Origin: Alphaproteobacteria bacterium
Lineage (GTDB): Bacteria > Pseudomonadota > Alphaproteobacteria > Bin95
Reading direction: 5' to 3'
DNA: 64,000 bases
Assembly: GCA_963665325.3 (NCBI GenBank)
Contig: OZ224045.1
Location: forward strand, 608,001-672,000
Shown here: in pieces, positions 3,793 through 60,694 of the stretch
Layout: the number at the start of each line of letters is the position of its first letter
Position numbering within the stretch: the first letter of the stretch is position 1
The notes under the pieces: generated by a model
Database searches by the model: none
What the model was told of the DNA's origin: nothing
What the model saw: the letters and a program-made list of their open reading frames with translations, nothing else
Position numbers and translations under genes: made by a program

Positions 3793-5055
3793 TCACCAGG
3801 GCGGAGCGGTCATCGTCGCCATCGGGCTGATGTCGGCGACCACCTCCACCTCGTCGCGCGAGAGCCTGGCGAAGGCGAGGCAGAGCGCGACGTCGGCCTC
3901 GCTGTCATAGGGGCCGTGCTCCCGGCCGGTGGCGATTTCGATCACCGTCCAGCTCGGGTCCCAGATCGGGATGCCGCGGAATGCCCCCGAGCCCTCGCGG
4001 TGCTTGCGGGAACAGGGCTCGCAGCGCGCCACCCCCGGCGAGGGCGTGTTGCATTCGACGCAGCGGCCCCTGGCCCGCCGCTCGGCGTAGCGCCGGCGGC
4101 GGGCAGCGTATTCCGCCTCGCGGTCGCGCCGCTCCTCCTTGGCCACGGCGCAGGGCGCGCAGTAGGCCGCGCCGCCGTAGGTGGGGGTTTGGCACTTGAC
4201 GCAGACCCCGGCGGCTCTCCGGGCATCGTAGCGGGCGCGCGCGGCGTCGCGGCAGGCCTGGCACTCGGCGGCCCCGCCGGCCGGCCTGCCGCAGGTCGTG
4301 CAGTCGCCCCTGGCTCTCCGTTCGGCATAGCGCCGGCGGTCGGTTTCCCGCTTGGTCTTCAGGTTCCGCCGCCCTTCCTTGGCCACGGCGCAGGGTTCGC
4401 AATAGGCCTTGCCGTCCGCCGCGGGCGCCGTGCAATTCACGCACAGGCCGGCGGCGCGGCGCTCGCGATGGCGGGCCCGGGCGGCGTCGCGGCGGTCGTC
4501 CCGGCACGGCTCGCACATCGATCGTCCCTCTTCGGGCGGGACGGCACCGCAGCGGATGCAAAGACCGGCCGCGAGGCGGGCTTCGCTGCGCCGGCGGCTG
4601 CCCTTCCGGCCGGCCCGGCGCCGGGCTACCGGGTCGCGTCCGCCATACGGTATCCCCTCGGCCTTGGCCCTGGCGTGACGAGCGCGGTCACGGGCGCGGT
4701 GCTTCTCCGCGCAGGGCTCGCAGGTCGTGCGATCGGGCCGCGCCGGAGCCCGGCCGCATTTCGTGCAGATGCCGGCGGCCTTGCGCTCGGCGTGCTGGCG
4801 GCGACCACGCTCACGCTCGTAGCGCTTCGCCTGTTCCGGGTCGCGTACGGGCTTGCCCTCGGCCCGGAGCCGGGCGGACCGCGCGCGGTCGGCGGCGCGG
4901 CACCTCTCCGCACAGGGCTCGCAGAGCGTGCGCTCGGGCGCGGGCTCGGTCTTGCCGCATCGCACGCAGAGCCCCGCTGCGCGACGCTCAGCGGTTCGCC
5001 GGTGATAGCGCGCAAGGTCGTTCCTGCGCCGGGCCTCGATATCGCGGTAAGCCAC
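3793..5055 (-). CDS. Arg-rich protein with seven tandem CxxC-x9-11-CxxC zinc-finger-like repeats
   Basis: GTG start with GGAAGGAGG RBS; seven A(A/R)GxCxxC...CxxC units. Confidence 0.85.
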   Translation of the reverse strand: MAYRDIEARRRNDLARYHRRTAERRAAGLCVRCGKTEPAPERTLCEPCAERCRAADRARSARLRAEGKPVRDPEQAKRYERERGRRQHAERKAAGICTKCGRAPARPDRTTCEPCAEKHRARDRARHARAKAEGIPYGGRDPVARRRAGRKGSRRRSEARLAAGLCIRCGAVPPEEGRSMCEPCRDDRRDAARARHRERRAAGLCVNCTAPAADGKAYCEPCAVAKEGRRNLKTKRETDRRRYAERRARGDCTTCGRPAGGAAECQACRDAARARYDARRAAGVCVKCQTPTYGGAAYCAPCAVAKEERRDREAEYAARRRRYAERRARGRCVECNTPSPGVARCEPCSRKHREGSGAFRGIPIWDPSWTVIEIATGREHGPYDSEADVALCLAFARLSRDEVEVVADISPMATMTAPPW

Positions 5056-5953: not shown

Positions 5954-6241
5954 ATGAATAAGGCGGAACTTGTCGGCGACGTGGCCGCTCGAACCGGATT
6001 GAGCCGGACGGATGCGGCCGGCGCGGTGGATGCGGTGTTCGAGGCGGTCACCGAGTCGCTTGGCCGGCGGGAGGAAGTGAGGATCGCCGGGTTCGGCCGG
6101 TTCGCCACCAGGTCCCGGCCCGCCCGTACCGCACGCAATCCGCGCACGGGTGAGCCCGTTGCGGTGGCGGCTTCGACCGCGCCGTCGTTCAAGCCGGCCA
6201 GGGCGCTCCGCGAGACCGTGAACGGCGGAGCCTCCTCGTGA
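5954..6241 (+). CDS. hup: HU family DNA-binding protein
   Basis: MNKAELV...V(R)IAGFGRF...ARTARNPRTGE...PSFKPA(R)ALRE. Confidence 0.95.
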   Translation: MNKAELVGDVAARTGLSRTDAAGAVDAVFEAVTESLGRREEVRIAGFGRFATRSRPARTARNPRTGEPVAVAASTAPSFKPARALRETVNGGASS

Positions 6242-6511: not shown

Positions 6512-6754
6512 TTACAAGTCCAACCTCCGTAGGAGATCCTGGATGCCGACTCCGTGATGCCGGGCGATGCTCTTCAGGATGCTGGACAGCGTCTTCGCCC
6601 GGAGCGGGTCGTGCAGCGGGATGACCTCATGGTGCTCGCCTCCGGTCTGCGTCGTGATACGCACGTGCGAGCCGCGTTGGCGCACTTGCTCATAGCCGAT
6701 GCGACGAAGCGCCGCCACCAGGGTGGCGCCGCTCACGTCGCGCGGCAACTTCAT
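6512..6754 (-). CDS. hicA: Type II TA toxin, HicA family
   Basis: GYEQVRQRGSHVRI, IPLHDPL, TLSSILK; ATGA overlap with hicB. Confidence 0.9.
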   Translation of the reverse strand: MKLPRDVSGATLVAALRRIGYEQVRQRGSHVRITTQTGGEHHEVIPLHDPLRAKTLSSILKSIARHHGVGIQDLLRRLDL

Positions 6755-6969
6755 GCCACCAGAACCTCGTCCCGTACGAAATGCAGCCGGATCAGGCTCG
6801 GGCGCTCCATGCCGTCGTCGAAGTAGCAGTCCACCGCTTCTCGCACGTTGCGGCGGAGGTCTTCGAGGCTGTCGCCTTGGGTGTGGATGCCAAAGCCGAG
6901 CGCGCCGGCCGAGTAACCACCGTCCAACTCGTCCTCACTGACTTCGAAGATGATCTCCGTCCCGGACAT
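6751..6969 (-). CDS. hicB: Type II TA antitoxin, short HicB family (no DNA-binding domain)
   Basis: DGGYSA...IHTQGDSLEDLRRNVREAVDCYF; GGAG RBS. Confidence 0.88.
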   Translation of the reverse strand: MSGTEIIFEVSEDELDGGYSAGALGFGIHTQGDSLEDLRRNVREAVDCYFDDGMERPSLIRLHFVRDEVLVA

Positions 6970-7367
6970 TGGTGTCTCCACTTGCCGCTACGTTCATGCC
7001 GCCGCATTCGACGACCATCGCCCACAGTCGATCCTACCCTATGCGGAGCGGCGGTCGAGCGGATTCTTGTTTTGTCCGATCCGCGTGGGCGGTTTGCGGA
7101 GCAACGGACAAGGATATGGCTGTCCAGGCCCATGAATTCGGCATGGTTCCGGGGTTGAATTCAGCCGGTCGAATTGAAGACGGGCGCGCTATGGCCAGTC
7201 TGTGAGCCCTCGACAGTCCTGCGCTGAGTCTACCCGTCCAACGCTCCGTGAGCATTACTTACGGCTGGCCGACATGACCATATACAGAAACTGCGTGGGC
7301 CCAGGGGCCAGGGGGCACGGATCATGTCGCCGGTTGTCTGGTAGAATCAAGGAAGCGGGGCGCCTCC

Positions 7368-8564
7368 CTATAGAACATCGGCGGCAATGCTGACCGCTAT
7401 CCTCTCAGCGGATTCCCTGACCGAGTCACGCGCGAGATGCGCATAGCGCGCGGTGGTTTCTATCCTGCGGTGGCCGAGCAGCCGGCCGATGATCGGCAGG
7501 CCCTCGCCGAGCGCCAGCGCCCTGGACGCGAACGAATGTCGAATGTCGTGGATGCGCACGTCATCCAGCCCGGCCTTCGCGCGGATGCTCTGCCACGCCC
7601 CATCGATGTCGGCCATGTGCGTGCCCGGCTTCGCGCCCGGAACGACCCACGGATTGTCCGGTTCGCGCGGCAGGGCCGCGAGCACGTTCACCGCCGCCGG
7701 CGACAGGTGGACCGTGCGGTCGCCAGTCTTCCCGTTGACGATGCGCATCTCCGCCCTGTCGAGATCGACATGCTTCCAGGGCAGGGTCATGATCTCGTTC
7801 TTGCGGCAGCCCGTCAGCATCAGCAGGCGGATCGTCGTGACCGCCCCCGCCGATACCTGGCTGCCGTTCCCCGACACCTCGTCGAGCACCTGCCCGAGGC
7901 GGGTGAACTCGGCGTCGGTCAGGAAGCGCTCGCGCTTCTTCTTCGGGTTCATTGGAATCGACCGGCACGGATCGTCGTGGTCCTCGGGGACCATGTCCCA
8001 GCCCTTGGCGAGCTTGTACATGTAGGTCAGGGTCTCGACGACCATGTTGGCCATGGCGGGGATTTCGCACAGGCTCTCGTGCAGCGCCATGACGTGGCGC
8101 CGCTCCACCGCCGCGATCGGCAGCTTGCCGAGCGCCGGCACGATGTGGCGGTTGACGACGCTGCGCGCGGTGCGCTGCGTCTTCGGCTTGCAGCGGGCCG
8201 CGACATGCTCTTCGAGATAGCGCCGCCCCAGGTCGGCGACGGTCGGCCCGCCGGCGTGTTTCGCAGGGAGCGGCAGGGGCACCGGATCCTCGCCGGCCTT
8301 GACGCGCGCGATGATGAGCGCGGCCCGCTGGCGCGCCTCGGTGGCGCTCAGCACCGGATGGCGCCCGACCGTGATGCGCCTCGGCCGGTTGGGCCTGCCC
8401 GGCCCGTCGGGACCGCGCGCCTGGGCGACGAAGACCTTGCCGCCGGTCGGGTATACCCGGACGCCGAAGCCGGTCAGGGTGCGGTCCCAGAACACCGTGT
8501 CGCGCTCGACGAAAAGCGCCTCCACCGTGCGGTTGGAGAGCGTCCTGTATTGCAGCACCGCCAT
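7368..8564 (-). CDS. Tyrosine recombinase/integrase with arm-type DNA-binding N-terminus (type B, copy 2)
   Basis: WDRTLTGFGVRV; TGCRKNE, GKTG, HDIRH, LGH...TTARY catalytic set intact. Confidence 0.93.
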   Translation of the reverse strand: MAVLQYRTLSNRTVEALFVERDTVFWDRTLTGFGVRVYPTGGKVFVAQARGPDGPGRPNRPRRITVGRHPVLSATEARQRAALIIARVKAGEDPVPLPLPAKHAGGPTVADLGRRYLEEHVAARCKPKTQRTARSVVNRHIVPALGKLPIAAVERRHVMALHESLCEIPAMANMVVETLTYMYKLAKGWDMVPEDHDDPCRSIPMNPKKKRERFLTDAEFTRLGQVLDEVSGNGSQVSAGAVTTIRLLMLTGCRKNEIMTLPWKHVDLDRAEMRIVNGKTGDRTVHLSPAAVNVLAALPREPDNPWVVPGAKPGTHMADIDGAWQSIRAKAGLDDVRIHDIRHSFASRALALGEGLPIIGRLLGHRRIETTARYAHLARDSVRESAERIAVSIAADVL

Positions 8565-8576
8565 CGCCCGCGCCTC

Positions 8577-9761
8577 CTATGCCGCCTCGGCGTCCGGCGC
8601 CGCGAGGTGGGCGCCGATGCTGTCTCCGGTGCGCGCCGCGGCGGCCTTCTCCGCGTCGTGCACGAGATGCGCATACCGGGCGGTGGTGCCGACCTTGGAA
8701 TGGCCGAGTATGCGCCCGATCATCGTCAGGCTCTCGCCGAGGGCCAGCGCGCGCGAGGCGTGCGAATGACGAAGATCGTGGATGCGCACGCCCTCGATGC
8801 CGGCATGGTCCTTGATGCGGTTCCAGTAGTAGGTGAGGTCGGGCAGGCAGATGCCGGGCTTCTGGCTCGGGATGACCCACGGATTGCCTTCGACGCGCTC
8901 GATGCCGTCGAGCACCTTCAGGGCCGGCGTGGTCAGCGGCACCATGCGCGGGCCACGCTTGCCGTCGCGGAGCCGGAACTCGCCGGCGGTGTGGTCGACG
9001 TCGTCCCATCGGAGTGTGAGGATCTCGGACTTGCGGCAGCCGGTCAGCATCAGCAGCCGGATCGCGGCGATCGCCGGCGGCCACATCCAGCCTCCGGCCT
9101 CGGCTTCCCTGAGCGCCGCGCCGACGCGGCGGTACTCCTCCGCCGTCAAGAACCGCTCGCGGGCCTGCTCGCGGTAGTGCCGGACCATCCTGCAGGGATT
9201 GCGGCCGCGGGGCACCAGTTCCCATGTCTCGGCGAGCGAGAACATCTTCGAGAGCATCGAGACGACGTGGTTGGCCATCGAGGGCGTGTTGCGCAGGCGG
9301 TCGTGGAGCTCGATGACGTGGCTCGACCGCACGTCCTTCACCGCCATGGTTCCGAGCGCGGGGACGATGTGCCGGTCGATGGCGGTGCGGTAGAGCTTCT
9401 CCGTCTTCGGCTTGCAGTGGACCTTCACGTAGGCGCGCATCGCGCGCGCCGCGAGGTCGGCGACGGTGGGGTCCGGTTCCGGCTTCGGAGGCAGCGGCTC
9501 CAGTCCGCGCTTGATGCGGTCGATGACCTCGGCCGCCTCGCGGCGTCTCTGATCGATCGCCTTCCCGGGGACGGGTCCAAGGGTGACGCGCTTGAGGCCG
9601 GCGGGACCGCGCGACTGGACGACATAGACCTTGCGGCCGTTACGCTGGACGCGGACGCCGAAACCGGCGAGGTCGCGGTCCCAATGAACGGCGTCCCTGC
9701 CGGTCGCCGGCAGGGCGGCGACGCTGCGGGTGGTGAGGCGGAGGGTGCTTCTCTTCGGCAT
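8577..9761 (-). CDS. Tyrosine recombinase/integrase (type A, copy 2)
   Basis: MPKRSTLRLT start; WDRDLAGFGVRV; TGCRKSE, HDLRH, LGH...TTARY. Confidence 0.93.
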   Translation of the reverse strand: MPKRSTLRLTTRSVAALPATGRDAVHWDRDLAGFGVRVQRNGRKVYVVQSRGPAGLKRVTLGPVPGKAIDQRRREAAEVIDRIKRGLEPLPPKPEPDPTVADLAARAMRAYVKVHCKPKTEKLYRTAIDRHIVPALGTMAVKDVRSSHVIELHDRLRNTPSMANHVVSMLSKMFSLAETWELVPRGRNPCRMVRHYREQARERFLTAEEYRRVGAALREAEAGGWMWPPAIAAIRLLMLTGCRKSEILTLRWDDVDHTAGEFRLRDGKRGPRMVPLTTPALKVLDGIERVEGNPWVIPSQKPGICLPDLTYYWNRIKDHAGIEGVRIHDLRHSHASRALALGESLTMIGRILGHSKVGTTARYAHLVHDAEKAAAARTGDSIGAHLAAPDAEAA

Positions 9762-9820
9762 GGCGGTCCCCGGGGTCGCGGCGGCTCGATTCGGCTCCGA
9801 ATTGGAAGGTTGCAAATTGA

Positions 9821-9921
9821 GTCATCAAACCGCAAACGAGCGGCATCAACCTGTGGGGATAGCCTAGGCCGGCTCTGGCCTCAATTCAAGGGGTCGTGGG
9901 TGCCGAGGAAAGACAAAAACC
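9821..9921. repeat. Conserved upstream/end segment of integrase pair, copy 2
   Basis: 25/29 identity to 12040-12068, with further collinear blocks (TCAAGGG, GAGGA.AGA.AAA.ACC). Confidence 0.7.
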
Positions 9922-9937
9922 TATGTAAGACGCTAAG

Positions 9938-10810
9938 TTAGACCGCACATGGCCGCGATAGGAACCAGGAGGACGTGGCTGGCCGGGGGAAGAAAAAATC
10001 GCCTGTCTTAGAATCGGGAAGGCGCAACTCGCCGGCATCGAGATCGACGTCCGTCCAGCGCAGCGCGAGGACCTCGCCCTTGCGGCAGCCGGTCAGCATC
10101 AGCAGGCGGATCGCCGCCGCCGCCACGGGAGAGGCGGTTCCGGCCTCCACGGCCTCGTCCAGCGCCCGCCCGAGCCGGGTGAACTCGGCGTCGGTCAGGA
10201 AGCGCTCGCGGCCGCGCTCGGGATGTTTCTCGATCGACCGGCACGGGTTGCAGCCCGCCGGCACAAGGCCCCAGCCTTCGCCCAGACGGTACATGTGCGC
10301 CAGGGTCTTGACCGCCCGGTTGGCCGCCACCGGGCGGCCGCTCAGCCCGCGGTGCAGCTCGACGACCTGCCTGCGCTCCACCGCCTCGACCGGCAGCCGG
10401 CCGAGGGCGGGCAGGATATGGCGGCGCAGCACGCCGCGGAGCTTCGCCTGCGTCCTCGGCTTGAGCCGGACCTCGACATGATCCTCCAGATAACGGGCCG
10501 CAAGGTCGGCCACGGTCGGGCCGCCCCTGGCGCGGGCCGCGAGCGGCAGCGCCACCGGGTCCTCGCCCGCCTTGATGCGCGTGACGATCAGCGCCGCCCT
10601 CCGGCGCGCCTCGTCGGCGTTGAGCACGCCGTGCCGGCCCACCGTCACCCGCTTCGGCCCCTCCGGCCCCCGCGCCTGGGCGATATAGACCTTGCCGCCG
10701 GTCGGATAGACCCGGACCCCGAAGCCGGTCACGGTCCGGTCCCAGAACACCGTGTCGCGCTCGACCGTCATGGCCGCCACGGAGCGGTTGGAGATCGTCC
10801 TCTGCTGCAT
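9938..10810 (-). pseudogene. C-terminally truncated tyrosine recombinase (type B, copy 1)
   Basis: Homologous to 7368-8564 up to DSKTG, then an unrelated tail; lacks HxxR and the catalytic Tyr. Confidence 0.85.
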
Positions 10811-10821
10811 CGCCGTTCCCC

Positions 10822-12006
10822 TCACGCCGCCTCGGCGTCGCCGGGCATGATCCAGGCGGCGATGCTGCCGCCGGTCCGGGCGGCCGCCGCCTTCTCGGCG
10901 TCGCGCACCAGGTGGGCGTATTTCGCGGTGGTGCCGACCCGGGCATGGCCGAGCAGGCGCCCGATGACCGGCAGGCCCTCGCCGAGCGCCAGCGCCCGGC
11001 TGGCGTAGGAGTGACGGCAGTCGTGGAGCCGCACGTCATGGAGCCCCGTCGCCTTCCTGACCCGCCGCCAGTGCCAGGACAGGCAGGCCAGACGGCTCTG
11101 CGGCTTCGCCCCCCTGAGCACCCAGGGAACGCCGTCCTCCCGCTCGATGCCGTCCAGCACCTTCAGCACCGGCCCGGTCAGCGGCACCATGCGCGGGCCC
11201 GTTTTCGAGTCGCGGAGCCGCAAGACCCGCGCCGCGCGGTCGATGTCGTCCCATTGCAGGGTCAGGATCTCGTCCGAGCGGCAGCCGGTCAGCATCAGCA
11301 GGCGGATCGCCGCGATGGCGGAGGGCTGCATCGAGCCCTCGGCCTCGAAGGTCTTCAGCACATCGCCGATGAGCCGGAACTCGTCCGGCGTCAGGAAGCG
11401 CTCGCGGGGCGTCTCGCGGTACTGGCGGACATGCCGGCAGGGGTTGCATCCGGGCGGGACCATCTCCCAGCTCTCGGCCAGCGCGAACATCTTCGAGAGC
11501 ACCCAGATCGCCTGGTTGGCCGCCGCCGGCGTATCGCGCAGTCCGTGGTGGAGCCCCGCCGCGTCTTCCGGCGCGACGTCCTTCAGCGCCTTGCTCCCCA
11601 GCGCCGGCAGGATGTGGCGCTCGATGGACATGCGGTAGTTCTTCGCCGTCCTCGGCTTGCAGCGCGCGGCGACATGGTCCTTCAGGCAGAGTGCCGCCAG
11701 GTCGGCGACGGTGGGCTCGGGCGCCGGTTCCGGCTGCTTCGGGTCCTCGCCCCGCTTGATGCGGTCGATGGCCGCCGCCGCCTCGCGGCGGCGCTCCTCC
11801 ACAGTCTTCTCACCGGCCGGCCCGAGCGTCGCCCGCTTCAGGCCTGCCGGTCCCCTCGACTGGACGATGTAGAGCTTGCGCCCGGTGGCGTGGACCCTGA
11901 CCCCAAAGCCGGCGAGGTCGCGGTCCCAGAAGATGGCGTCCTTGCCGCCGGGCTTGAGCCCGTCCACAATCCGCTTGGTCAGCCTGAGGGTGCTCCGTTT
12001 CGGCAT
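10822..12006 (-). CDS. Tyrosine recombinase/integrase (type A, copy 1)
   Basis: MPKRSTLRLT start; TGCRSDE, DSKTG, HDCRH, LGH...TTAKY; same length (394 aa) as copy 2. Confidence 0.93.
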   Translation of the reverse strand: MPKRSTLRLTKRIVDGLKPGGKDAIFWDRDLAGFGVRVHATGRKLYIVQSRGPAGLKRATLGPAGEKTVEERRREAAAAIDRIKRGEDPKQPEPAPEPTVADLAALCLKDHVAARCKPRTAKNYRMSIERHILPALGSKALKDVAPEDAAGLHHGLRDTPAAANQAIWVLSKMFALAESWEMVPPGCNPCRHVRQYRETPRERFLTPDEFRLIGDVLKTFEAEGSMQPSAIAAIRLLMLTGCRSDEILTLQWDDIDRAARVLRLRDSKTGPRMVPLTGPVLKVLDGIEREDGVPWVLRGAKPQSRLACLSWHWRRVRKATGLHDVRLHDCRHSYASRALALGEGLPVIGRLLGHARVGTTAKYAHLVRDAEKAAAARTGGSIAAWIMPGDAEAA

Positions 12007-12039
12007 CGCCGCGCTCCGTCCCGAAATGCCCGCATATCG

Positions 12040-12140
12040 GTCATCAAACCGCATACGGACGACATCAAATCGGGGGCGATTGAAGGCGATGCTTGGCGGG
12101 AAGTCAAGGGTTCGGATGCCGGTGAGGACAGAAAAATACC
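12040..12140. repeat. Conserved upstream/end segment of integrase pair, copy 1
   Basis: GTCATCAAACCGCATACGGACGACATCAA, matching 9821-9849. Confidence 0.7.
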
Positions 12141-12214
12141 ATACATTACAACACTCTTTCACAATCGTGACACTGGACGGCGGGCGGCGGCAGTGATTGG
12201 CAACAATTCAATGC

Positions 12215-12259
12215 GACCCCGGCTCAAGTCCGGGGTGACAGTTAGGAGGCCGGGGTGAC
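12215..12259 (-). repeat. GTCA-type REP-like palindrome with a partial second copy
   Basis: Minus strand GTCACCCCGGACTTGAGCCGGGGTC; CCGGGGTGAC repeated at 12250-12259. Confidence 0.5.
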
Positions 12260-12343
12260 GGTTTTGGGGGCCGGGGCCAGGCTTCGGGAACTTCTTCATC
12301 CCGCGTAGCGGCGCAGCCGCGTATCGGGGGATGCGCCGCCGCC

Positions 12344-13234
12344 CTACCCCGCGCCCGCCCGCTCCGCCAGCGCCAGCACATGGCGGGCGGCCTTGAGGTG
12401 CGGCATGTCCAGCATCTTGCCGTCCAGCCCGACGGTTCCGGCCCCGCCGGCGTTCTCCATCGCTTCCACGACGCGCCGGGCATGGGCGATTTCGTCTTCG
12501 GTGGGCGCATAGGCGCTGTTGATCGGATCGACCTGCGCCGGGTGGATGGCCACCTTGCCGGTAAAGCCTGTCTTGCGACCCTGCAGCGCCTCGGCGTGCA
12601 GGCCGTCGAGGTCCCGGAAGTCGGGATAGACCGAGTCCACCGGCTCCGTGCCAGCTGCCTTGCATGCCGCCAGGCAGAGCGCGCGCGCTAACCGGTACAC
12701 GTCCTCATACTCGCCGTCAGGCGCTCGGTTGGTCGAGGCTCCGAGCGCCGCCGAGAGGTCCTCCGCACCCCAGGTCATGCCGTAGATGCGCGAGCTTGCG
12801 CCGGTGAAGCTGTCCATCGTGAAGAGCGAACGCGCCGTCTCGGTGGCGACGACGAGGATTTGCGTGGCTCCGGGCGCGACCTCTTCCCGCGTTTCCAGGG
12901 CCGAGAGATAGTTGTCGAGCCTGACGGCCTCGGCAGCGGAAAAGGTCTTCGGCAGCACGATCCCGTCCGGCGCGCCGGCCATCACGGCCGCGAGGTCCGG
13001 CAGCGCCAGTTCGGTGTCGAGCGGGTTGATCCTGACCCATAGCTGCTGGCTGCGGTCGTCCCGGTTGGCTTCCAGCCGTTCCCGGACCATCTGCCGCGCC
13101 ACGGGCAGGTTGGACTGCGCAACGGAATCCTCAAGGTCGAGGATCAGCGCGTCGGCCGGCACGCCGCGCGCCTTTTCGAATTTGCGCGCGCTGTCGCCCG
13201 GCACGAACAGAAAGCATCTGAGCGCGTCGGTCAT
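12344..13234 (-). CDS. CitE/HpcH family CoA-ester lyase
   Basis: LFVPGDS, DLEDSV, WVRIN, GAEDL, GKVAIHPAQV, LDGKMLDMPH; ATGA overlap with MaoC gene. Confidence 0.92.
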   Translation of the reverse strand: MTDALRCFLFVPGDSARKFEKARGVPADALILDLEDSVAQSNLPVARQMVRERLEANRDDRSQQLWVRINPLDTELALPDLAAVMAGAPDGIVLPKTFSAAEAVRLDNYLSALETREEVAPGATQILVVATETARSLFTMDSFTGASSRIYGMTWGAEDLSAALGASTNRAPDGEYEDVYRLARALCLAACKAAGTEPVDSVYPDFRDLDGLHAEALQGRKTGFTGKVAIHPAQVDPINSAYAPTEDEIAHARRVVEAMENAGGAGTVGLDGKMLDMPHLKAARHVLALAERAGAG

Positions 13235-13686
13235 GACGGACGCTTCTTCATCATGCCCTGGCGCTTGCAGCGGGCGACCTCTTCGCCGCGCTGGTTCAAC
13301 GCCCAATGCTCGAAGGTGACGATGCCCACCTCTGGCCGGGACCGGCTCTCCCGCTTGTCGAGGATCTTCGTGTAGGAGGTGATGGTATCGCCGTGGAAGA
13401 CCGGACTGCGGAAGACGCAGTCGGTCATGCCGAGATTGCCGACCGTCGTGCCGAGCGTAGTTTCCTCCACCGACACGCCGATCATCAGCCCCAATGTGAA
13501 GATCGAGTTGACCAGCCGCTGGCCGAATTGCGAGTTCTCCTTCGCAAATTCCTCGTCCAGATGAAGCGGCTGCGGGTTGTGGGTCAACGCCGTGAACAGG
13601 ATGTTGTCCATCTCCGTCACCGTGCGGGTGATCGGATGCTTCCACTCCATCCCGATTTCGAATTCCTCGTACCAAAGACCGGCCAT
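13231..13686 (-). CDS. MaoC family dehydratase
   Basis: RTVTEMDNILF...NPQPLHLD...PVFHGDT hotdog-fold motifs. Confidence 0.92.
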   Translation of the reverse strand: MAGLWYEEFEIGMEWKHPITRTVTEMDNILFTALTHNPQPLHLDEEFAKENSQFGQRLVNSIFTLGLMIGVSVEETTLGTTVGNLGMTDCVFRSPVFHGDTITSYTKILDKRESRSRPEVGIVTFEHWALNQRGEEVARCKRQGMMKKRPS

Positions 13687-34437: not shown

Positions 34438-35339
34438 CAGGAATCGCTCCTCGACGCGAGCGGATGATGATCGAAGACGGCGCGCCGCAACTGCTCCTCC
34501 ACGACGTGGGTATAGATCTGTGTCGTCGCAATATCGGCGTGGCCGAGCAATTGCTGAAGACTCCGCAAATCGGCCCCGCCTTCGAGCAGATGCGAGGCGA
34601 AAGCGTGGCGCATGACATGCGGCGACACCCGGGCGGGGTCCAGTCCCGCGCGAACCGCCAGTTCGTCGAGCAGCTGGCCGACCCGGCGCCGCGTCAGGTG
34701 GCCCTCCTTGCTGCGGGACGGGAACAGCCAGCGCGAGCGACGCCCGCCGACAAGATAATGATTACGCGCAGCGGTCCAAGCGTCGATGGAGGCGCGCGCA
34801 TGGTCGCCGAGCGGGACGACTCGCTCGCGACCGCCCTTGCCCCGTACCGTCAACCAGCCGCGTCCGGGCGGCACGTCGGACATGACGAGGCCGACAAGCT
34901 CCGAGACGCGCAGCCCAGCCCCGTAGAGCAGTTCCACGATGCAGCCGAGCCTGAGGCGCGCCGGCCCGTCATAGCTTTCGATGGCCTCGATGATTGCGCC
35001 CAATTCCTCGATGCCGAGATGGCGCGGCAAGGGCCGGCCGATCTTGGGCGCATCTAGCCGGTCTGCGGGATTGTCGCCGCGATAGCCCTCCGCCGTGCAG
35101 AACAGGAAAAACTGGCGCAGCGCCGAACGACGCCGCGACACGGTCCGGGGCGACCGGCCGGCCCTGAGCAGGCCGGCCAGGTAGCTTCTAAGGTCCGCTT
35201 CCCCGGCTGTCTCCAGGCCGCCGCCGAGTGTGGCCTGTGCGTCTTCGAGGTCGCGGCGATAGGCAGAGACCGTGTTGGCGGCAGCCCCGCGCTCTACCAC
35301 AAGCGCCTCCAGAAAGGCGTCGAGCGCGCATACGGTCAC
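34437..35339 (-). CDS. xerD: Site-specific tyrosine recombinase XerD
   Basis: NTVSAYRRDL, GLRVSEL, GKGGRER, SPHVMRHAFASHLL, LGHADIATTQIYTH; upstream of accA. Confidence 0.92.
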   Translation of the reverse strand: MTVCALDAFLEALVVERGAAANTVSAYRRDLEDAQATLGGGLETAGEADLRSYLAGLLRAGRSPRTVSRRRSALRQFFLFCTAEGYRGDNPADRLDAPKIGRPLPRHLGIEELGAIIEAIESYDGPARLRLGCIVELLYGAGLRVSELVGLVMSDVPPGRGWLTVRGKGGRERVVPLGDHARASIDAWTAARNHYLVGGRRSRWLFPSRSKEGHLTRRRVGQLLDELAVRAGLDPARVSPHVMRHAFASHLLEGGADLRSLQQLLGHADIATTQIYTHVVEEQLRRAVFDHHPLASRSDS

Positions 35340-53453: not shown

Positions 53454-53540
53454 GGCCGCTTGCTGGAATTGGTAGACAGACCGGACTTAAAATCCGATGG
53501 GAGAATTCCCGTGAGGGTTCGAGTCCCTCAGCGGCCACCA
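53454..53540 (+). tRNA. tRNA-Leu(TAA)
   Basis: Acceptor GGCCGCT/AGCGGCC + A + CCA, D-loop TTGGTA, anticodon loop CTTAAAA, long variable arm, GGTTCGAGTCC T-arm. Confidence 0.92.

Positions 53541-58704: not shown

Positions 58705-60694
<1,990 letters not shown>

Follow-up and report, generated by a model that had tools for sequence, protein, structure and literature searches.

Why should one bacterial locus carry four tyrosine integrase genes in a row? Lambda-type integrases normally consist of one protein, which acts as a homotetramer. We analysed a stretch of 64,000 nucleotides from an Alphaproteobacteria bacterium (assembly GCA_963665325.3, contig OZ224045.1, positions 608,001-672,000), hereafter the window, whose own positions are used below. 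The array consists of two tandem pairs, intA1-intB1 and intA2-intB2. The A-B pair is a real and conserved two-integrase module that is apparently undescribed, and the four-gene array is a nested insertion. A preliminary description of this DNA had proposed that an obligate heteromeric A-B pair defines its own mobile unit, which accumulates in tandem at one locus.

Four integrase genes in two pairs

All four genes lie on the minus strand in the order A1-B1-A2-B2. The intact genes intA1 (10822-12006, island 1) and intA2 (8577-9761, island 2) belong to the A clade and each encode 394 amino acids; intB2 (7368-8564, island 2) is an intact B-clade gene that encodes 398. The B-clade gene intB1 (10007-10810) is cut after its Lys268 codon (10009-10007). 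Its open reading frame (ORF; 10810-9938) encodes 290 amino acids and continues into the leader DNA of island 2, with a stop at 9938. ORF coordinates bear out the order and the B1 truncation given in the preliminary description, as well as its gaps of 11 and 12 nt between the A stop and the B start. The MPKRSTLRLT start and DAEAA end of both A proteins and the WDRTxTGFGVRVYPTGGKVxxAQARGP segment common to B1 and B2 are also as described. One correction concerns the outer limit: A1 starts at 12006, and 12007-12140 is leader that does not encode A1.

Protein identity is 63% between A1 and A2, 63% between B1 and B2, and 47-49% between A and B. The four proteins match Arm-DNA-bind_3 (Pfam accession PF13356, which we take to be the former DUF4102) and Phage_int_SAM_3 above cut-off, and all match the Phage_integrase domain, B1 marginally under the cut-off. 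As previously described, A1, A2 and B2 combine an arm-binding-type N-terminus with the full R-K-H-R-H-Y set (R243, K268, H328, R331, H354 and Y363 in A1 and A2; R254, K279, H339, R342, H365 and Y374 in B2). B1 retains R243 and K268 only; its H-x-x-R, H and Y are absent. This catalytic set and the integrase fold identify tyrosine recombinases of the lambda integrase type, and no Resolvase or Recombinase Pfam domain was found in the four window proteins. NCBIfam XerC/XerD scores are 48-61 for all four, against cut-offs of about 330. The AlphaFold model of A2 (mean predicted local distance difference test score 81; C-terminal tail unreliable) has lambda integrase as its closest structure (1z1b, E 2e-13, template modelling score 0.39); the A2 match to NF007246 is weak (E 5e-4).

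A and B are a conserved pair

We scanned GTDB with a motif common to A and B, so that neither type was favoured, and obtained at least 119 stretches. The loci are a sample: 60 non-overlapping loci with flanks, and 39 further loci of 648 bases or less. The locus counts below refer to the 60 unless stated otherwise and hold among the matches listed.

Of 43 assessable A genes, 40 have B directly after them. Two of the other three are frameshifted (L027 and L048), and the third, that of L062, is intact and precedes IS21-like genes. One further A gene lies at a contig edge (L061), and the first gene of L010 was counted as A by its tree position, though its best-hit label is T. Conversely, all 34 full-length B genes are preceded by A, and the lone B genes are fragments or contig-edge cases, none of them intact. 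The A-B gap has a median of 16.5 nt in 34 of 36 pairs, with no gene in between, and the B-A order was not found among the 60 loci. At the short loci, the next family gene begins after A in 12 of 13 cases (for the 13th A, a B lies 1.2 kb downstream in the same contig) and a family gene follows B in 0 of 16. The preliminary description had named usually solitary homologues as the outcome that would count against it; this is not what we find. Its A-B pairing was kept across loci. Its repeated layout was not, with A-B-A-B arrays at 0 of 60 loci. Two records, OZ242260 and OZ244799, carry three different pairs each.

A genuine A-B fusion family was considered and rejected. Four of the seven long matches are A-then-B read-throughs in single sequences, at least two with frameshifted stretches, and these count as adjacency evidence only. 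Natural chimeric genes, both B/A and A/B, occur via deletion between similar stretches in P0065, P0066 and L021.

By record title, the family occurs in metagenome-assembled genomes from at least four phyla, assigned to Alpha- and Gammaproteobacteria, Binatia, Acidobacteriota, Nitrospinota and Thermodesulfobacteriota. Sponge-related names occur in two record titles; a bias towards sponge symbionts would be a guess from names alone.

A and B have diverged together

The main tree has 65 rows, drawn from 26 of the 40 pairs and 13 single genes. One clade (Shimodaira-Hasegawa-like approximate likelihood ratio test 96) holds 23 of the 26 first-position proteins, and second-position proteins mirror it. 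Constraining 23 B proteins together gives a slightly better tree than the unconstrained search. Approximately unbiased (AU) tests reject both the four window proteins as a clade (p 9e-6) and A2 with B2 as a clade (p 2e-52). Across the 40 pairs, A and B distances are correlated (Mantel r 0.86; 0 of 5000 permutations), and the A and B trees have 24 of 37 splits in common without strongly supported conflicts. The correlation is 0.82 among 20 pairs dereplicated at 70%, with L030, L077 and L080 removed. A and B are thus two co-diverging clades, in line with the preliminary description.

First- and second-position proteins of the 40 pairs retain R-K-H-R-H-Y except in truncated genes. In nine close comparisons, the ratio of nonsynonymous to synonymous substitution is 0.13-0.41 for A and B alike, which indicates purifying selection; this is equal on the A and B catalytic domains. 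The residues diagnostic of the two types, defined as sequence positions only, are charged in A (R257, E371) and hydrophobic in B (L, V). Inside pairs, the putative recognition helices of A are unlike those of B, and they also differ between clades; we assume that they read DNA as in other tyrosine recombinases. Gene conversion between partners was rejected as a major force, own-partner identity being only about one point above identity to other B proteins.

The protein collection has matches 97% identical to A2 and 99% to B2. Among GenBank plasmids, 163 records matched with a best identity of 43.6%; the relatives at about 40-44% are single genes in four of four fetched. Three GenBank phage records matched, at 33% identity at most.

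The four-gene array is a nested insertion

A1-B1 is 90-92% identical in DNA to the intact pairs of L070 and L020. Within B, where this identity is 90-91%, it ends abruptly at window position 10014. Beyond this point, the DNA matches the L021 and L064 leaders, starting at AAG|ACAGG (10002-10009, minus strand). Because A1-B1 homology breaks here and a leader of the L021/L064 type starts at AAG|ACAGG, island 2 (A2-B2 and its cargo) appears to have inserted into intB1 right after the catalytic-Lys codon. The junction is a candidate crossover region, with a candidate AAGACAGG-like core. Its 8 letters recur at the L021 and L064 junctions, and in L064 they cut another integrase gene at D-S-K-T-G. Island 1 would thus have arrived first and island 2 later, and the window holds an insertion into B1 of island 1, not the head-to-tail accumulation first proposed.

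Four of 37 left junctions examined sit in integrase genes (window island 2, L064, L062 and L072), and of 237 database proteins, 10 are broken where L072 is, at H-x-x-R-H; these counts suggest that integrases may be targeted. These ten (P0053, P0059, P0061, P0065, P0066, P0070, P0072, P0177, P0184 and P0185) end just past H-D-x-R-H-S/T, and several carry a similar short tail resembling an outward-read leader motif; insertion at this codon or an internal inversion that switches the integrase off could produce them. An SSV-type arrangement, with the att site inside the element's own integrase gene, was ruled out: in intact pairs the leader precedes A, and the break points are spread over several different codons.

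Leaders, junctions and targets

A conserved leader lies upstream of A. It ends in repeats of TTGATG/TTGATTAC type; this motif occurs in 37 of 44 leaders, but in no more than 5 after shuffling. For island 1, the attL-like leader occupies 12007-12212 (minus strand, outer limit approximate) and shares 76% identity with that of L070 over 12152-12002; the repeat (TTGATG...TTTGATGAC) at 12040-12068 (minus strand) provides putative arm-type sites. The attL-like leader of island 2 (9762-10006, minus strand) aligns with those of L021, L064 and island 1, is 76% identical to that of L021 over 9954-9821, and has a repeat of the same type at 9821-9849 (minus strand), again putative arm-type sites. With a consensus that we assumed for integration host factor (IHF), an IHF-like site was found in 13 of 35 leaders (shuffle mean 3.0). 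The host junction lies about 155-170 nt from the leader motif.

One clade has an identical 10-base core at its left junction and at right-type ends, together with the motif and an IHF-like site, a layout that appears to be that of lambda-type att sites. In the L006/L014/L044 clade, these same-core left and right-type ends do not occur as the two ends of one element. An arm-like motif also lies right after the second gene of L080. The leader order upstream of A is atypical in L047 and L056, and in L027 (5870-5990): repeats come first, then an AT-rich stretch and the A start, or two motifs directly adjoin. A leader-profile match near 60200 lies inside a guaB-like ORF and was taken as chance. A scan of the minus strand for sigma-70 promoters and terminators gave nothing.

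Target choice varies by clade and includes integrase genes, the ribosome-binding site (RBS) of a lipoprotein gene, and repetitive extragenic palindromic (REP)-like hairpins. Island 1 abuts a REP-like hairpin (12213-12239), single-copy in the window, at its expected host junction, as do L070, L049 and L052. The hairpin beside the L070 leader is similar to that of the window, with repeats in L034, L041 and L076. Because the region 12205-12290 folds no better than shuffles (z -0.9), the hairpin is a weaker target call for island 1. The core at the left junctions of L006, L014, L022, L041, L069 and L076 is the RBS of a large lipoprotein-like gene beside a SlipAM (Slam) gene. L006 and L014 have a second end with the same core, inverted, downstream of B, and right-type ends occur in L006, L014 and L044; through the inverted second end, expression of the surface lipoprotein could be switched by inversion. 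T-clade left ends (L011, L074 and L078) lie in D-V-G-G codons, in a frame judged by eye, near the starts of genes that we take to be hydantoinase/oxoprolinase-like, and a right-type end of L079 lies at the same type of target. Near-identical elements of L010 and L062 sit in a CHASE2-domain gene and an integrase B gene, respectively, with only a short similar target in common.

No tRNA or Rfam target was found near the window array, and no tRNA adjoins any paired locus among the 60 scanned; the solo locus L045 is the only one beside a tRNA (tRNA-Lys). The only tRNA of the window, Leu (TAA) at 53454-53540 (plus strand), is far from the array. Genes upstream of leaders are diverse host genes or insertion sequences (IS; 91 ORFs scanned), and IS66-like and DruA-domain genes recur beside the leader in L013, L036 and L057.

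The pair heads larger islands

DNA similarity among pairs stops at the B stop codon, and there is no common right end. Genes after B vary, and Pfam annotation of 129 ORFs yielded no conserved helper gene in the operon, although a small unannotated one is possible. Toxin-antitoxin pairs, IS and HU genes occur after B elsewhere (129 of 209 predicted ORFs scanned with Pfam), and genes for a TrwC relaxase (L068) and for TraL/TraE (L066) lie downstream of pairs. Pfam gave no relaxase or conjugation gene in the 7.3 kb of cargo that the window covers. Because the leader marks a left end, upstream genes are diverse and cargo follows B, the pair is the integration module of larger islands, resembling integrative and conjugative or mobilizable elements with variable cargo. 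It is therefore not a self-contained mobile unit, as had been supposed, but the left end of larger cargo islands, some with relaxase or conjugation genes.

Comparison with known systems

Paired paralogous arm-binding integrases are not described in the literature searched, which mostly lay outside subscription journals; family members may be listed in the PMC8138268 and PMC3414803 protein tables. As stated in the preliminary description, A-B matches neither Xer nor RIT, having two arm-domain genes and Xer scores of 48-61 versus about 330. Other tyrosine elements with several recombinases are known (Tn554, SE, GInt, RIT and Prevotella MTnPi), and differ in gene number, size or homology (PMC10214605, PMC5385486, PMC3414803, PMC4755523).

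The IntSXT subgroup shares the DUF4102 arm, SAM-like and catalytic domains, an att-like leader before the gene, and island cargo, whereas A-B has two paralogous integrases per element (PMC8138268). IntSXT elements insert at tRNA genes, guaA or prfC; such insertion was not seen at paired loci, where A-B targets are short and clade-specific (PMC8138268). SCCmec CcrA/CcrB is likewise a two-gene recombinase operon that stays and moves together, with a single-gene sister (CcrC) and composite stacks, but consists of large serine recombinases that use one fixed attB in rlmH, as against tyrosine enzymes with many targets (PMC12648241). Despite its serine chemistry, CcrAB with solo CcrC appears to be the closest organisational parallel of A-B.

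Prevotella intermedia MTnPi1/2/3/6/7/9 and Tn1806 are mobilisable elements with two tandem tyrosine integrase genes, both suggested to be necessary for excision (PMC4755523). The two MTnPi genes are reported to lack significant homology, unlike A and B, which are 47-49% identical and of the same size and domains (PMC4755523). Tn554 (TnpA/B/C), SE (IntA-Tfp-IntB-Srap) and GInt (GinABCD) also have two catalytic tyrosine recombinases in a coupled left-end operon, with all genes required where tested (PMC10214605, PMC5385486, PMC3414803). Each combines an ordinary recombinase with a large one and requires one or two helpers (TnpC, Tfp/Srap, GinC/GinD), whereas A and B are both about 390-400 amino acids and carry arm domains, and no conserved helper was found. 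Those elements are further characterised by strand-biased copy-out circles and a 6-bp footprint. RIT elements have several linked recombinases with the catalytic motif and truncated combinations; their three overlapping genes, which span about 3.5 kb, encode simple recombinases without arm domains, and the usual core and arm sites are reported absent, in contrast to two arm-domain enzymes heading large islands (PMC3414803, PMC8138268). XerC/XerD are two paralogues (PMC2731167), but A-B has arm domains, lies on mobile islands and scores far under the Xer cut-offs. A and B would nonetheless share a synapse.

Proposed explanation and alternatives

XerC and XerD act together in one synapse. The best overall explanation, to which we give a probability of about 0.6, is that A-B is a two-gene integration module of genomic islands, that the window holds two nested islands, and that A and B, the products of a single ancient duplication of an arm-binding tyrosine integrase, have been co-inherited since. 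Each island would have a lambda-type left end with a short core, often an IHF-like site, a promoter-like box and arm-type repeats, followed by the intA-intB operon and cargo. Island 1 would lie downstream of a host gene, next to the REP-like hairpin. Island 2 would later have integrated into intB1 past the catalytic-Lys codon, disabling B1 and leaving A2-B2 behind it. Most likely, A and B work in one synaptic complex, because both are catalytic, they share one leader and operon, and the helices expected to read DNA differ; each would bind its own half-site in a short asymmetric core, and this split would make short, degenerate, clade-specific targets usable. The module would then be an analogue of CcrAB built from tyrosine recombinases. 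An obligate heteromer of A and B is a plausible hypothesis. The fuller proposal, in which an obligate arm-binding heteromer assigns each half-core to one protein and some clades target conserved integrase codons (the catalytic Lys, H-x-x-R, and W-D-R-D of the arm domain), thereby disabling resident islands, is possible but tentative.

Several observations weigh against this explanation or parts of it. Co-phylogeny is expected from linkage alone, and contact between A and B does not follow from it. Family-wide, the split is shallow, with few diagnostic residues (identity A-A 56%, B-B 58%, A-B 52-53%). Sister clades S and T are intact single integrases 65-75% identical to B-type proteins. The T clade (L011, L074, L077 and L078) has the same leader as the pairs, and near-identical copies at two different sites (L011 and L077) indicate that it is apparently mobile; because of this shared leader and these copies, a single enzyme seems to suffice in close kin. 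L062 holds the only intact A without an adjacent B, and L030 and L080 each carry two non-A genes in tandem. Training and scoring of the leader profile used the same leaders, and the profile also scores two outgroup leaders; with 3 mismatches, both window leaders are a poor fit to the IHF consensus. Neither the right ends of islands 1 and 2 nor, by tblastn, the 3' part of B1 was found in the rest of the window. Finally, islands are also neutral landing ground, which weakens the reading of integrases as targets.

Complete catalytic sets and arm domains in both proteins would also suit a division of labour, in which A and B form separate homotetramers, one of which integrates while the other excises (or each serves its own target type), so that both are kept with no mixed complex. 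No conserved Xis-like third gene follows B; of the downstream ORFs scanned, HTH_17 was matched immediately after B in L066 alone. The charged A and hydrophobic B residue sets could favour like-with-like contacts. This division is nevertheless fairly unlikely: one leader with one conserved repeat set serves A and B, and none of the 34 full-length B genes has a leader of its own. It is distinctly unlikely that either enzyme alone works, the second being kept for wider target range or dosage, or B modulating A. The single-gene sister clades, with T apparently mobile, would fit, as would the natural chimeras and deletions (P0065, P0066, L021) and the short, degenerate targets; against them stand the absence of an intact lone B and the single intact lone A in 60 loci, equal selection on both catalytic domains, and no strongly supported partner swap in 40 pairs.

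The small self-contained transposable cassette, stacking head to tail, of the preliminary description is already largely refuted and very improbable. Several pairs per genome, with three each on OZ242260 and OZ244799, and the arm-like motif after the second gene of L080 are in keeping with it, but no locus has A-B-A-B, similarity ends at the B stop codon without a common right end, common island backbone genes follow B, and B1 is cut by the A2 leader. Local gene duplication or an assembly artefact, which four similar genes in a row might suggest, is refuted: the AU tests reject local clades, the units are only 72% identical in DNA, and each has close relatives in other genomes, A1-B1 in the two intact pairs and A2/B2 elsewhere.

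Under the explanation of A-B as an island integration module, a conserved pair of co-diverged integrases, in place of the single one usual in such islands, suggests that the enzymes divide the work. The duplicated pair and its single-gene sisters are a natural experiment on the change from homomeric to heteromeric recombinases, a problem that work on RIT, GInt and SE elements has not settled. If the heteromer reading is true, target choice would be set by two separately evolving proteins, and the many A/B pairs with different short targets are a possible source of half-site-programmable integrases. Stacks of broken integrases in these genomes are explained as nested insertions, which matters for island annotation.

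Cargo and flanking genes in the window

Island 2 cargo includes a HicA toxin (6512-6754, Pfam) and a putative HicB antitoxin (6751-6981), both on the minus strand, with similar DNA directly after B in L046; the latter, without a PHROG match, is presumably HicB by its position. An HU-like DNA-binding protein (Pfam accession PF00216) is encoded at 5954-6241 (plus strand). The backbone of this cargo, identified by Pfam on the minus strand (680-2977), comprises ssb (2513-2977), DUF4326 (1970-2329) and a YAcAr/SLOG protein (680-1708), with homologues downstream of pairs in L028 and L053.

We also identified a 420-amino-acid Cys-rich repeat protein of no known family (3793-5055, minus strand), with homologous DNA downstream of B in L021. 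It has no match in Pfam, NCBIfam or PHROG; its nearest atlas cluster consists of 53 hypothetical proteins (score 0.97), with a weak double-zinc-ribbon lead below 0.9. Homologues of the ssb, YAcAr, HicB-like and Cys-rich genes thus recur after pairs at four other loci.

On the other side of the array, an HpcH/citrate-lyase-like gene (12344-13237, minus strand), followed by MaoC and GST genes (Pfam), is probably host flank, judging by function. A weak tblastn match to the catalytic domain at 34479-35033 (minus strand) is probably a host Xer-type recombinase.

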